Positions 2,759 through 6,167 of a stretch of DNA of 6,739 nucleotides are shown in pieces. This DNA comes from Escherichia coli (lineage in GTDB: Bacteria; Pseudomonadota; Gammaproteobacteria; Enterobacterales; Enterobacteriaceae): the NCBI RefSeq assembly GCF_003334255.1, contig NZ_QOWU01000099.1; one strand, 5' to 3'. The stretch's first letter is position 1; each line of letters starts with the position of its first letter. The position numbers and the translations under genes are program-made. The notes below the pieces were generated by a model. The model was given only the letters and a program-made list of their open reading frames with translations. It ran no database searches and had not been told where the DNA came from.

Positions 2759-2817
2759 CCGGTGAGCAGTTTTTCTCCATTATGCTTCAGACTTAGATGA
2801 TTGATTATTATGGGGAT

Positions 2818-2857
2818 TTCATCACCGATATTCAGATGTATGAATATCGGTGATGAA
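2818..2857. repeat. 17-bp perfect inverted repeat with 6-bp spacer (TTCATCACCGATATTCA-GATGTA-TGAATATCGGTGATGAA)
   Basis: 2818-2834 is the exact reverse complement of 2841-2857; the spacer is 2835-2840. It lies between the convergent 3' ends of the yfjI-like gene (stop 2758) and the 197-aa gene (stop 3096). The stem is AT-rich and no T-tract follows on either strand, so it is not a classic intrinsic terminator. Confidence 0.9.
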
Positions 2858-3095
2858 CTAAAGCTCAGGAGCTGCGTGGTGGTGATGAATCAACAGGCAT
2901 ATAACTGATACCCGCCGGTCAGAAGTTCCAGCCTGCGACTTTCCTGTCTGCGTGCCCGCAGTCCGGCGTTCAGGTGCAGCGTGTGACAGAACGCACGGAG
3001 AGCGAAACGGCAGGCAGACAGGCCGTTCAGTCAGCCCTGGCACCCTGCCCGGATACCAGCTTCCCTGAAACAACTGGCATCAGGTGCGCTTATCG

Positions 3096-3689
3096 TCAAC
3101 CGTTGTGCGGTATGCCAGGAGCAACGTACTGATCCATCAGATCCGTCAGTGCTGCGCTCTGCTTCTGACGGTTGATGATCCATTCCTCCAGCTCTTTTTC
3201 TGATTTCCGTTTCAGATTCTCCGTCCAGTCGTCAAGGCAGTTTCCGGTCATTAAATCAAGCCAGCAAAGCCAGACCAGTTTGAGGCGCAACTCCGTGCCA
3301 CCAAACTGACGGAAGAGGCTAATCAGTTTATTTGCCAGAGAACGCTGCCTCAGACGTTCACATTCAGACAGGAGAATGCCTTCCAGCATCGGATGATGAA
3401 CCAGCAGATGTTCACTGGTGCATAAATTCACGATCAGATCATCATCCAGGGGCGGCGTGGCCCGTTTGTCAGGGCCATAAATCAGCCGGTGCAGGCTCTG
3501 GGGTACGATGGCAATCTCCGGTTTTTCACCATTGAATGACACCCACCCGGGCGTCAGATTATGGAAGTAGTAGATATTCGGATGACACACGCCCCAGGAT
3601 ACGGCGTGCCGGGTGAAGCCGGTCAGCCATTTCTGGTAGCTTTCGTGGAGCAGCTCGTAACGGGTCTGATACTGTGGTTTCATTTTCAT
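3096..3689 (-). CDS. hypothetical protein, 197 aa, unknown function, immediately downstream of alpA
   Basis: Track ORF 3096..3830 (-). The first 47 codons are low-complexity and overlap the alpA 3' end, so I trim to the internal MKMKPQYQ start. GAGGA (reverse complement of 3692-3696) lies 2-3 nt before ATG 3689 and 8-9 nt before ATG 3683, so 3683 is an equally plausible start. The body is protein-like, but I recognise no family or catalytic motif. Confidence 0.7.
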   Translation of the reverse strand: MKMKPQYQTRYELLHESYQKWLTGFTRHAVSWGVCHPNIYYFHNLTPGWVSFNGEKPEIAIVPQSLHRLIYGPDKRATPPLDDDLIVNLCTSEHLLVHHPMLEGILLSECERLRQRSLANKLISLFRQFGGTELRLKLVWLCWLDLMTGNCLDDWTENLKRKSEKELEEWIINRQKQSAALTDLMDQYVAPGIPHNG

Positions 3690-3769: not shown

Positions 3770-3976
3770 TTACGGACGGGACTGTGCAATACGCGCCTGC
3801 AGCCAGGCTTCCACTTCGCTTTTCAGCCATCGGGAGCTGCGGCCCAGCTTGATGGGCGCAGGAAAGTCACCATCCTTGATGAGTTTGTAAAACCACTTAT
3901 CGGTCAGGCCGGTCAGTTGAGTGATAAATGCCATGTCGACCATCTGGTCATCCATCAGTGAAACTGGGGTGATCAT
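3770..3976 (-). CDS. alpA: AlpA-family phage-type transcriptional regulator (excisionase-like DNA-binding protein), 68 aa
   Basis: Track ORF 3770..4048 (-), trimmed to the internal ATG at 3976, which is preceded by GGAGG (reverse complement of 3986-3990) with a 9-nt spacer. The sequence FITQLTGLTDKWFYKLIKDGDFPAPIKLGRSSRWLKSEVEAWLQARI matches the AlpA family pattern (TGL...W.Y.LI..G.FP.PIKLG.R...W...EVE.WL) and the size is typical. Confidence 0.8.
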   Translation of the reverse strand: MITPVSLMDDQMVDMAFITQLTGLTDKWFYKLIKDGDFPAPIKLGRSSRWLKSEVEAWLQARIAQSRP

Positions 3977-4102
3977 GAGAATGTTCCTCCGGATGTTGTT
4001 AAACCAGCCGGTGTGGTCATGAAAACAACGCACCACCTTCACCGGCATAACAACCGGGGAGAAACGTAAAAAATAATCGGGAATGTGACCGCCAGGAGAT
4101 AA

Positions 4103-4120
4103 ACGGGGAGGTTACGGTGG
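4103..4120 (+). repeat. direct repeat copy 1: ACGGGGAGGTTACGGTGG
   Basis: 17 of 18 positions identical to copy 2 at 4248-4265. Flanks show weaker similarity (AGCCGTACC versus AGCCCGTGCC), giving about 35 bp of imperfect repeat. Each copy can form a GGTTACGG / CCGT(A/G)CC stem. Located 130-290 bp upstream of the alpA start, on the promoter side. Confidence 0.8.
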
Positions 4121-4247
4121 CTGAGCCGTACCGGTATGCCGGGTGGTTGTTACGAAACGATGCTTCCGCACGCGCGCGCTATAAAGAAGGGATGATTTTC
4201 GTGAGGAAGAGGGGAAAACTGGCGTTCTGATAATTGCAGAGTTATTT

Positions 4248-4265
4248 ACGGGGCGGTTACGGTGG
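4248..4265 (+). repeat. direct repeat copy 2: ACGGGGCGGTTACGGTGG
   Basis: Second copy of the 18-bp element, 145 bp from copy 1, with a single mismatch (A/C at position 7). Confidence 0.8.
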
Positions 4266-5196
4266 GGCAGCCCGTGCCTTGTGGGCAGGGACAGGTATCA
4301 CTGGTGGGATAAGGCTGTCTGATTGGTATTATAAATATAAGAAGTTATCAGAGAGTAACGTAAAGGATTTGCCAGAATAACCTAAGAGAGTAAATCTCTC
4401 CGGTAACAGAGCGCTGTGAAGCATTCTGTATCAGAGTGCAAATACATGAACGCTGATGCGTAAAATCAGCAGTGACACGCCAGCTCCCCCTGTGCCCATT
4501 CCTGTATAAGACATGAACTGAGCGTATTAATGCTCCTGCCCTGAGACTGAGCCGGTGAGTGAGGGGCTGAGAAATCCCTCTTGACACTGCTCTAAACCAG
4601 AAATACTTCCCCGGTTGTTGCGGTGCGTCCGGATCCCCGATAACGGAACACTAAGGCTGTATTGCGGGACACCAGGTAAGTGGCAGCCCGTAATACGTCA
4701 GGAGACGCGGGAAAAGTGAATTCCCACACGCGTTATAAACTTACCCTAGCGGAGCTGGAAGCCTTTAACTCTGCCGTTGACAACCGGCTGGCAGAACTAA
4801 CCATGAACAAACTTTACGATCGCGTTCCGGCTTCTGTCCGGAAATATGTCACCTGAACGTTCGGTAATCACAGCGGTATTGCGCCAGGTGTTATCTGCTC
4901 TGTGTGATTCTTTTTAGGGTTTCTCAGATTGTTAAAAGCTGAATATGTTCCTGTTGTCGGGAACCAGGATAATACAGGGAACATTAAGCGGTATAGCGAC
5001 AACAAAGCATTCGAAATCAAAAGGGAATGGTGTACGGAGTTGTGGGCAGTAATGGGCCGATTTTCGGGCATTACCGATCTCTGTTGAGGTTTTCTCGTAT
5101 TTGCCGGGGATCCGGTGCGTTACTGTCTGGCACAGCAAACGCAGAGGTGGCGGGGCGCTCTGCTCCGCTGATTCCGGATAATCCCTCCCCTGTAAC

Positions 5197-5394
5197 CTAC
5201 GGCAACAGTACAAATACACTGACGCCTGAAACGACAGCCAGAATCAGCACAGGCAGTAACGTCAGTAGACAAAGCAGACGATCGGTATTCCGGTAATAAT
5301 CGAAGGGATCTGCTGACACGTAGCCCGGGCAACATTCCGTATTATGAGGGATGGCGTTATCACAATCCCTGCACACCGTTTTGCGTATCACCAT
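5197..5394 (-). CDS. candidate small protein, 65 aa, Cys-rich N-terminus and hydrophobic C-terminal segment
   Basis: Track ORF 5197..5397 (-). Minus-strand sequence upstream reads TTGTGAGGAGGACGTG-ATG: a strong AGGAGG core 5 nt before ATG 5394. Product MVIRKTVCRDCDNAIPHNTECCPGYVSADPFDYYRNTDRLLCLLTLLPVLILAVVSGVSVFVLLP has CxxC-x9-CC followed by a ~25-residue hydrophobic stretch. It overlaps other short ORFs in a messy region, so the coding status is uncertain. Confidence 0.3.
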   Translation of the reverse strand: MVIRKTVCRDCDNAIPHNTECCPGYVSADPFDYYRNTDRLLCLLTLLPVLILAVVSGVSVFVLLP

Positions 5395-5488
5395 CACGTC
5401 CTCCTCACAATCTTATCCGTAACCGGCTTTTTGCATTAAAAAAACAACGCTGAAAATTCAGCCGTCAGTCCGGAGACGACAGTCGGGT

Positions 5489-5509
5489 TATCTCAGAGTG
5501 CCTGAGATA
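5489..5509. promoter_or_regulatory. 8-bp inverted repeat TATCTCAG-agtgc-CTGAGATA in the intergenic region upstream of the yagK/yfjJ-like gene
   Basis: 5489-5496 is the exact reverse complement of 5502-5509, with a 5-bp spacer. It sits about 90 bp upstream of ATG 5598 and about 95 bp upstream of the candidate divergent small ORF start at 5394. Short enough to occur by chance; position is what makes it operator-like. Confidence 0.3.
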
Positions 5510-5597
5510 TTGCCTGGTTGGAGATCACTTCAGGGACTCTGCGCATTTTTTACGGCGTGGTTAATCCGTATGAACGAAACCATACGGAGATTTAACC

Positions 5598-6167
5598 ATG
5601 ACCTACAAATGCAACCCCTTCTGGCAGCAACGTATTCGTGAGACGGTGCTGCACGCACTGGATGTTCATCCCCGTCTGACGGCATTGCGGGTTGATCTGC
5701 GTCTCCCGGATGTACCGGCAGCAACGGACGCGGCTGTGATATCCCGCTTCATCAATGCCCTGAAAGCCCGAATCGACGCTTACCAGAAACGTAAGCATCG
5801 GGAAGATAAACGCGTGCATTCCTCGACCCTGCATTACGCCTGGGCCAGGGAGTTCGGGGAGCTTAAAGGCAAAAAACACTATCAACTGCTGCTGCTGGTC
5901 AACCGGGATACCTGGTGTCGTGCAGGCGATTACCGCGCTCCGGGGTCACTGGCCGGGATGATTAAACAGGCCTGGTGCAGTGCCCTGGGGGTGGATGCCG
6001 GATGTTATGCCACGCTGGTGCATTTTCCGGTCAGGCCGGCGGTGTGGCTGGAACGCGATGATGATGCTGGTTTACGGGATATGCTGAAGCGTGCTGACTA
6101 TCTCGCGAAAGAGTACACCAAAGTCAACGGTACCGGTGAGCGCAATTTTGGCTGTAGCCGGAGTTGA
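5598..6167 (+). CDS. YagK/YfjJ-family protein (inovirus Gp2-like), 189 aa
   Basis: ORF 5598..6167 with GGAG at 5586-5589 and an 8-nt spacer to the ATG. Motifs RVDLRLP, VISRFINALKARI, HYAWAREF, HYQLLLLVNRD, LVHFP and the C-terminal NFGCS match what I recall of E. coli YagK/YfjJ proteins. Family call is from memory, not a search. Confidence 0.75.
   Translation: MTYKCNPFWQQRIRETVLHALDVHPRLTALRVDLRLPDVPAATDAAVISRFINALKARIDAYQKRKHREDKRVHSSTLHYAWAREFGELKGKKHYQLLLLVNRDTWCRAGDYRAPGSLAGMIKQAWCSALGVDAGCYATLVHFPVRPAVWLERDDDAGLRDMLKRADYLAKEYTKVNGTGERNFGCSRS

Follow-up and report, generated by a model that had tools for sequence, protein, structure and literature searches.

What occupies the 1.6 kb of DNA between alpA and a YagK/YfjJ-like gene in an Escherichia coli genomic island? 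The stretch in question, positions 3977–5597, lies in a window of 6,739 nt (the whole stretch of DNA analysed), which is a piece of an E. coli-type island. The initial annotation had seen no convincing long coding sequence (CDS) there and had proposed a structured RNA, a dense regulatory region or a decayed gene. These options were partly supported, each fitting a small part of the stretch and none the whole. The stretch is largely ordinary, being neither a hidden gene nor a large RNA, and it is probably a composite region, part control and part spacer, that separates two operons lying back to back in a widespread E. coli island backbone. The left operon would consist of alpA and a 196-aa gene (orf196) read leftwards, and the right operon of the YagK/YfjJ gene, hereafter Gp2-like, and zinc-ribbon genes read rightwards.

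Conservation was assessed by aligning the alpA-to-Gp2 interval in 13 E. coli copies; all figures are mean pairwise identities, with third-codon-position identity in alpA (0.877) and in the Gp2-like gene (0.870), which flank the interval, as the neutral yardstick. The highest block was 3977–4085, with an identity of 0.959 and with 4037–4066 invariant. Identity was 0.874, the third-codon level, for 4086–4340, about 0.72 for 4341–4679, and 0.77 (range 0.47–0.81) for 4857–5196, where up to 46% of the columns are gaps and some copies carry insertions of about 100 nt. Two small open reading frames (ORFs), an hha-like one and one at 5197–5397, gave 0.84 and 0.79, respectively. For 5398–5597 the identity was 0.92, with 5439–5480 and 5546–5597 at about 0.955. 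Constraint above the synonymous level is confined to the ends: some 110 nt preceding alpA and some 160 nt preceding the Gp2-like gene. Between them, 1 kb or so evolves neutrally, at the synonymous rate.

Related loci in Yersinia, Klebsiella, Hafnia, Salmonella, Cronobacter, Serratia and Pantoea were reached through homologues of the 196-aa gene (56–67% identity). By blastn, the only part of 3977–5597 common to these loci is the block about 30–100 nt upstream of the alpA start. This alpA-proximal block is probably an undescribed translational-control leader, as judged from its modelled fold:

3974–4086, minus strand: alpA leader, a conserved block forming a nested hairpin, with a covariance-model match of the same span.

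In the direction of alpA, the leader starts with a U-run (4068–4073) followed by AC and reaches the AUG at 3976–3974. In the predicted basal helix, the arm GUUUCUCC (4065–4058), an anti-Shine-Dalgarno (anti-SD) segment, pairs with GGAGGAAC (3989–3982), inside which the Shine-Dalgarno (SD) sequence lies. Inner helices GUUGUUA:UAACAAC and GCCGGUG:CACCGGC (4046–4040 with 4016–4010) and an apical GUGGU:ACCAC complete the hairpin, whose minimum free energy (MFE) falls between −37 and −40 kcal/mol, at z values of −3.8 to −4.0. Alignment of about 110 nt upstream of alpA in 16 distinct sequences revealed an invariant TTTTTTAC, an invariant TATG, four CCGG segments and the SD. Folded singly, 16 of 16 leaders gave one nested hairpin with the SD bases paired in every MFE structure, and ten representatives had z values from −1.5 to −4.6; the value for the window's leader was −3.8, at −37.4 kcal/mol. 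The common fold comprises, from base to tip, the U-run, the C/U-rich anti-SD segment paired with the SD and spacer, CCGG:CCGG, GGUA:UACC, GCCGGA:UCCGGC and GUGGU:AUCAC.

The helices change in sequence from lineage to lineage but stay paired. At the base, E. coli has GUUUCUCC:GGAGGAAC, and the counterparts are GUAUCUC:GAGAUAC (Klebsiella), GUAUC:GAUAU (Salmonella) and GUUCU:AGAAU (Y. ruckeri). The middle helix takes the form GCCGGUG:CACCGGC or CCCGGA:UCCGGG; Pantoea, which has lost the apical helix, carries a 9-bp GCCGGAGAG:CUCUCCGGC instead. When a 23-pair structure was scored on a sequence-only MAFFT alignment, 86% of the cells were paired versus 79% in shuffled and 28–48% in slid controls, and double-sided changes were found in 20 cells versus 8.1 expected. 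The covariation score was 0.243 against 0.148 in shuffles (0 of 500 reached it), and a model-fitted alignment of 19 distinct leaders gave similar values. RNAalifold with default settings on the MAFFT alignment returned a weak structure (−4.9 kcal/mol), since indels shift the helices. The covariation check suggested by the initial annotation was positive for the alpA leader; the middle of the stretch proved neutral, with fold z about 0 across 4075–4350.

The covariance model gave one strong match per locus, always abutting the alpA AUG, including four loci outside its building set (E 1.6e-8); it had no match at the alpA upstream region of CP4-57 in K-12. A weak second match (22.6 bits, E 0.078) was noticed in intergenic DNA beside a gene of about 300 aa at L003:1502–1608 (+), L004:1209–1315 (+) and L013:693–799 (+). 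As it sits where alpA lies in other genera, it may be a relic leader from a rearrangement. A scan of viral contigs with the leader-motif pattern gave 18 matches, all by chance, with no likeness beyond the pattern. Two other readings of the block were discarded. A longer alpA product of 92 aa, starting from the ATG at 4048, does not fit: indels in the leader are not multiples of three, no in-frame extension exists in other genera and the SD before the 68-aa start is conserved. CCGG-N8-CCGG and TCCGG-N13-CCGGA as independent hairpins had no covariation support. With a covariation-backed structure across lineages and a fixed position upstream of an ORF whose SD lies in a helix, the alpA leader is probably a new example of a well-known type of cis-regulatory element.

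At the other end, a comparable arrangement precedes the Gp2-like gene:

5494–5600, plus strand: leader of the Gp2-like (YagK/YfjJ) gene, with a hairpin at 5494–5541, ATTTTTTACG at 5545–5554 and a second, SD-enclosing hairpin; identity 0.956.

The second hairpin, GGUUAAUCCGUAUG (5559–5572) with CAUACGGAGAUUUAACC (5581–5597), encloses the SD GGAG (5586–5589) and abuts the AUG at 5598. The plus strand of 5480–5650 folds with z = −3.8, and ten E. coli copies gave a consensus fold of −31 kcal/mol with almost no variation and one compensatory pair. Judged by eye, the Gp2-like gene is also preceded by hairpins that enclose the SD in L017 and L028, two loci of other genera, though their sequences are unrelated. 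The possibility of structured RNA or dense regulation found support in the alpA leader (about 110 nt) and, more weakly, in the Gp2-like leader (about 120 nt), but not elsewhere. The 10-mer ATTTTTTACG was found at both ends, at 4074–4065 (−) and 5545–5554 (+), before both SD-enclosing hairpins and followed 14–15 nt later by TATG. TTTTTTAC is invariant before alpA in every genus compared, and ATTTTTTACG/TTTTTTAC may be a promoter element, a 5′-end motif or a binding site.

From this arrangement a mechanism can be proposed. The alpA-proximal block would be the 5′ leader of the alpA mRNA, transcribed whole, and the basal anti-SD:SD helix would keep AlpA translation off by default until it is opened or cleaved. 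This might be triggered by RNase III, by a protein or small RNA, or through a ribosome standby site provided by the invariant U-run. The Gp2-like leader would follow the same logic, with SD and AUG within a hairpin. The remaining DNA would be spacer with putative promoters and, by analogy with CP4So of Shewanella, may be a target of H-NS/Hha silencing. As a tentative extension, the alpA leader (about 100 nt) might act as a riboregulator not described before, common to a family of Enterobacterales integrative islands with defence and virulence cargo, its U-run hairpin gating AlpA translation and thereby excision and replication, with the Gp2-like leader acting likewise.

Several points weigh against a control and spacer region bounded by leader RNAs. 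For the middle, the neutral reading depends on 13 copies, which are mosaic and recombining. In the alpA leader, the pairs with any double-sided change number 5 versus 4.6–4.9 in shuffles, with no excess; the covariation statistics are inflated, since the 19 leaders share ancestry and were themselves the source of the structure; and CCGG is self-complementary, so that alternative pairings exist. The near-absence of variation leaves the predicted structure of the Gp2-like leader with its single compensatory pair. A weak sigma-70-like reading can be given to TTTTTTAC-N14/15-TATG; a start site there would fall inside the hairpin, leaving its 5′ half as DNA only. Finally, the best promoter score by position weight matrix was 9.5 versus a shuffled best of 8.6 ± 1.5, that is, no excess.

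The main rival explanation gives the palindromic blocks a role at the DNA level: the one beside alpA would be an operator for AlpA or some other repressor, and the one beside the Gp2-like gene a rolling-circle or other replication origin of the excised island, with an 18-bp repeat pair as iterons. It was considered unlikely, although the gene at the right end could suit it:

5598–6167, plus strand: Gp2-like gene of the YagK/YfjJ "inovirus Gp2 family" (Pfam YagK_YfjJ_C, E 3.6e-44).

Its protein also matches REP_ORF2-G2P weakly (E 0.042), the Prokaryotic Genome Annotation Pipeline (PGAP) names its homologues "inovirus Gp2 family", and a DUF3987/YfjI protein is encoded nearby. In addition, the invariant TTTTTTAC-N14/15-TATG precedes both genes, and both strands of 3975–4074 fold about equally (z −3.6 and −4.0). 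However, G·U cells outnumber A·C cells in the alpA leader pairs (57 versus 24), which favours alpA-sense RNA over DNA, and some helices are wobble-only, for example three in locus L030. The helix sequences also covary instead of being fixed as a protein site would be. Wobble bias and covarying helices thus disfavour a DNA role.

As to the repeats, the direct pair reported initially is real: 18 nt at 4103–4120 and 4248–4265, 17 of 18 identical, with a local-alignment score of 31 versus 16.2 ± 2.5 (maximum 29) in shuffled sequence. Among the islands the two copies have identities of 0.85 and 0.81 and diverge independently, and half of copy 1 is missing from L009 and L010. The alignment is limited to 18 nt, which rules against a tandem duplication of the surrounding DNA. 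The test for an iteron-type origin failed, with two 18-nt copies only, about 1.4 kb from the Gp2-like gene and with identities of 0.81–0.85. The (CG)4 run CGCGCGCG is also present, at 4171–4178, four bases to the right of the 4167–4174 first given, and it is interrupted in most paralogous copies. Both features, which the initial annotation had picked out, show conservation no higher than the neutral level, and the z-scores of folding across 4075–4350 are about 0 on both strands.

Back to the control and spacer reading, the DNA between the two leaders divides, apart from the two small ORFs and the right-hand end, into three parts:

4087–4340, no strand assigned: non-coding DNA of E. coli-type islands only, at neutral identity (0.874), with fold z about 0 to +1 on both strands.
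4341–4679, no strand assigned: hha upstream region, "type A" allele, non-coding, with ORFs not kept between alleles.
4857–5196, no strand assigned: indel-rich spacer between the convergent hha-like and small ORFs, with no ORF kept across copies.

The first part probably holds putative alpA and/or hha promoters: it has an AT-rich block (4320–4345), and the best promoter-like hexamers, at chance level, cluster at 4328–4364 on both strands. The second occurs as two deeply diverged alleles, about 49% identical in alignment, with a recombination breakpoint near 4340, and its frames matched nothing in NCBIfam or PHROGs. In the third, a putative hha terminator hairpin at 4866–4915 was discarded as not significant (z = −0.28).

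Could this DNA nevertheless encode a large structured non-coding RNA or trans-acting small RNAs, over the 700 bp or so between alpA and the hha-like ORF or over all 1.6 kb? We regard this as improbable. It is non-coding, has a GC content of 0.46–0.56 (not AT-rich, in agreement with the initial annotation) and is retained at thousands of island copies, and one 100-nt window, 4375–4474 (+), has z = −3.4 with four small hairpins. Against it, a sliding 100-nt scan gave z about 0 to +1 on both strands across 4075–4350, where identity is at the synonymous-site level. Moreover, 4341–4679 exists as two very diverged alleles, the candidate DNA as a whole has no homologue in the islands of other genera, and a terminator scan found no intrinsic terminator-like site in 3977–5400. 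The Rfam search that had been called for gave no family match at E ≤ 1 in the whole window, nor at E ≤ 1 in eight loci from other genera; at E ≤ 10 in 3900–5700 the only hit was PYLIS_3 (E 8.5), in 4857–5196, which is a chance match.

With regard to coding content, the longest stop-to-stop frame in 3977–5597 is 103 aa versus 112 ± 24 aa in 500 shuffles at GC 0.50, which is the ORF content of random sequence. The absence of a long CDS was thereby confirmed, but not that of any CDS. In RefSeq homologues 96% identical to the stretch, PGAP annotates two small CDSs, 4680–4856 and 5197–5397 (−), which make up 23% of it, so that the longest unannotated run is only about 700 bp (3977–4679, adjoining alpA), with about 340 bp and about 200 bp further right. 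PGAP also calls an 88-aa "hypothetical protein" (WP_000840364.1; L003:3141–3407 and L004:3141–3407, equivalent to window 4117–4380). It was rejected as a hidden gene because it has stops in 10 of the 13 copies, the window included, and 60% amino acid identity at about 88% nucleotide identity; its substitutions show no codon pattern. Going by these sequences, the call is probably spurious.

The small coiled-coil-like ORF pointed out initially is the first of the two CDSs:

4680–4856, plus strand: Hha/YmoA-family ORF of 58 aa with a GTG start, a truncated, N-terminally scrambled allele of hha2/hha3 type.

It matches the NCBIfam Hha model NF008191 with 61.8 bits (E 5.2e-17), under the 90-bit cut-off, residues 13–57 falling on profile positions 27–71/72. 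Homology to the C-terminal helices of Hha was therefore found, without full length. The ORF is 89% identical to residues 24–69 of a full-length 70-aa allele in L005, from which it differs by a 35-nt and a 1-nt deletion (a net loss of 36 nt), a change of the homologous start from ATG to GTG, and seven out-of-frame codons; its C-terminal two thirds is intact. Among the 13 copies, hha is frameshifted in six, full length in three and in the 58-aa form in four, and PGAP labels it "Hha/YmoA family", or a pseudogene in L012. From its sequence, the window paralogue is probably a decaying gene, and since the N-terminal helices are lost, an Hha-like function would be doubtful. The proposal of a decayed gene applies to this paralogue only, as no remnant of a larger gene was found.

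The second CDS is the Cys-rich ORF that had been singled out for its strong SD, and both traits were confirmed:

5197–5397, minus strand: small ORF of 65–66 aa, PGAP start ATG at 5394, SD GAGGAGG.
5439–5480, minus strand: U-run and two hairpins resembling terminators, immediately before the small ORF, identity 0.955, fold z = −2.4.

The protein has an N-terminal zinc-ribbon-like motif, CxxC...CC(P)xC, and a C-terminal hydrophobic tail. Its frame is intact in 10 of the 13 copies, with two tail variants that differ yet are equally hydrophobic, and its variable columns number 28, 28 and 40 at codon positions 1, 2 and 3. Paralogues carry CxxC-N10-CCPxC with weak Pfam zinc-ribbon matches (best E 0.014, range 0.014–0.3); the window allele reads CRDC...CCPGY, without the last Cys (zinc-ribbon E 0.29). 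All 28 homologue clusters (28/28) are E. coli "hypothetical protein", and PADLOC found no defence-system match among the small proteins. Sequence comparison suggests that 5197–5397 is probably a real, fast-evolving and E. coli-restricted gene for a small membrane protein. The hairpins at 5439–5480 may act as an attenuator or mark where a short antisense transcript ends; the terminator scan found 2 sites versus 1.8 ± 1.5 by chance.

It seems very improbable that this ORF is the toxin of a type I toxin–antitoxin-like module whose antisense RNA would come from the conserved DNA next to it. In favour, the protein is small and has a hydrophobic tail, its SD is strong, the strand that encodes it has conserved hairpins and a U-run further upstream, and the island is mobile. 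Nevertheless, no known toxin family was matched, the frame is broken in 3 of 13 copies, no antisense promoter rises above chance, and a 65-aa product whose zinc-ribbon-like head is cytoplasmic does not resemble the known type I toxins. It is hardly credible that the region was left by frameshifts in a larger known gene: the visibly decayed hha paralogue and the indel-rich segments would fit, but ten stop-to-stop frames of 48–103 aa matched nothing in NCBIfam or PHROGs except Hha, tblastn with the proteins neighbouring alpA in related islands found no remnants in the stretch, no frame besides the two small ORFs is kept across the 13 copies, and the PGAP pseudogene flags in homologues fall on hha and the small ORF only.

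The control and spacer region is set among the following genes, in addition to the Gp2-like gene:

Left part of the window, plus strand: YfjI-family gene, the first from left to right.
3096–3686, minus strand: 196-aa gene (orf196), family unassigned, reading leftwards with alpA.
3770–3976, minus strand: alpA, an AlpA-type helix-turn-helix gene matching the excisionase/AlpA-type family, with homologues carrying PF05930.
Right of the Gp2-like gene, plus strand: zinc-ribbon gene, the last in the window.

The labels alpA and yagK/yfjJ-like first given to the flanks hold, as the AlpA-type and YagK_YfjJ_C matches show. The 196-aa gene had no Pfam, NCBIfam or PADLOC match; it is kept beside alpA across Enterobacterales islands (56–67% identity) and was taken as a backbone gene co-transcribed with alpA. 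Two further parts of the window have no convincing CDS: 1–1200, left of the YfjI gene, which is AT-rich (GC 0.32–0.45), and the 337 bp at 2759–3095 between the convergent YfjI and orf196 genes, with GC about 0.6.

By megablast, 3977–5597 has 9152 matching places, spread over 3701 of the 5426 complete E. coli genomes and up to 9 per genome; at least 80% of it is covered at 448 of the 9152 places. These E. coli islands also carry Ag43 (flu), a GTPase and cargo such as McrBC (one copy at L002:10022–13358). A blastn search of 3977–4345 gave zero matches in phages and nine plasmid records, at least six of which are 0.8–4.9 Mb and look like chromosomes filed as plasmids. The sole return of a contig search with the Gp2-like protein was L006 (NZ_WACP01000054.1), which belongs to an assembly of Paenibacillus tengchongensis. 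This contig of 683 nt has low coverage, encodes a 97%-identical protein fragment and most likely contaminates the assembly.

In the other genera, the usual backbone is a leftward GTPase gene, a leftward gene of about 300 aa, about 0.5 kb of non-coding DNA, and then alpA, a gene of about 198 aa (orf~198) and YagK/YfjJ, all rightward, followed by cargo. In Y. ruckeri, Pantoea and L051–L054 the YagK/YfjJ gene lies directly upstream of alpA instead, and in E. coli alpA-orf196 is inverted relative to the Gp2-like gene. The cargo after the backbone (L017–L032, L051–L054) includes DndB with PAPS reductase, BrxA/B/C, type I restriction-modification HsdM/HsdR and a TIR protein. With such anti-phage cargo in eight genera, the backbone marks a family of defence-cargo islands.

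For annotation, the "empty" 1.6 kb found in about two thirds of complete E. coli genomes can be read as mostly neutral spacer. Islands of at least eight genera, with cargo of the Dnd, BREX, restriction-modification, TIR and McrBC kinds, have the SD-occluding alpA leader in common. Provided that it is functional, the leader would be a handle on the silencing of the islands' excision regulator and a candidate Rfam-type family. It should be little surprise to the specialist, since leader hairpins covering a ribosome-binding site and decaying island regulators are both common.

Comparison with known systems places these elements as follows. Hairpins in 5′ untranslated regions that sequester the SD are known from translational operators and from RNA thermometers of the ROSE/fourU type. 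The alpA leader resembles them in that its C/U-rich segment pairs with the SD at the hairpin base, just before the start codon, but it is much longer and more stable than a typical RNA thermometer (−25 to −40 kcal/mol, five stacked helices). The int-alpA RNA motif is associated with integrase/alpA genes and, like the present leader, is a conserved RNA structure tied to alpA-type genes of integrated elements. In contrast, the window leader abuts the AUG, pairs the SD, belongs to a different sequence and structure family and has no Rfam match. The int-alpA motif is among the Rfam hits in Shiga toxin-producing E. coli genomes (PMC12370729).

The alpA-yfjI-yfjJ genes of CP4-57 in K-12 have their AlpA, YfjI/DUF3987 and YfjJ/YagK families all represented in the window. 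However, the three K-12 genes are contiguous and co-directional with short gaps, and the DNA upstream of alpA gives no match to the leader model. The paralogues hha2 and hha3 of enteroaggregative E. coli 042 are linked to the flu-yeeR cluster (PMC4864382, PMC6480617). The window ORF is likewise a small Hha/YmoA ORF on an Ag43 (flu) island, and full-length 70-aa alleles occupy the equivalent position in other island copies; unlike hha2/hha3, the window allele lacks or scrambles the N-terminal 25 or so residues and stays below the NCBIfam cut-off, and other copies are often frameshifted. In Shewanella oneidensis, H-NS binds the alpA promoter and controls CP4So excision, as shown by electrophoretic mobility shift assay (PMC5148205). 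As in CP4So, the DNA upstream of an AlpA-type excisionase gene would be the control point for quiescence of the integrated element. In the window, a paralogue of the H-NS co-regulator Hha is encoded divergently from alpA. Whereas control in CP4So is transcriptional, here it would be a predicted RNA hairpin over the SD, and the upstream DNA is not AT-rich (GC about 0.5–0.56).

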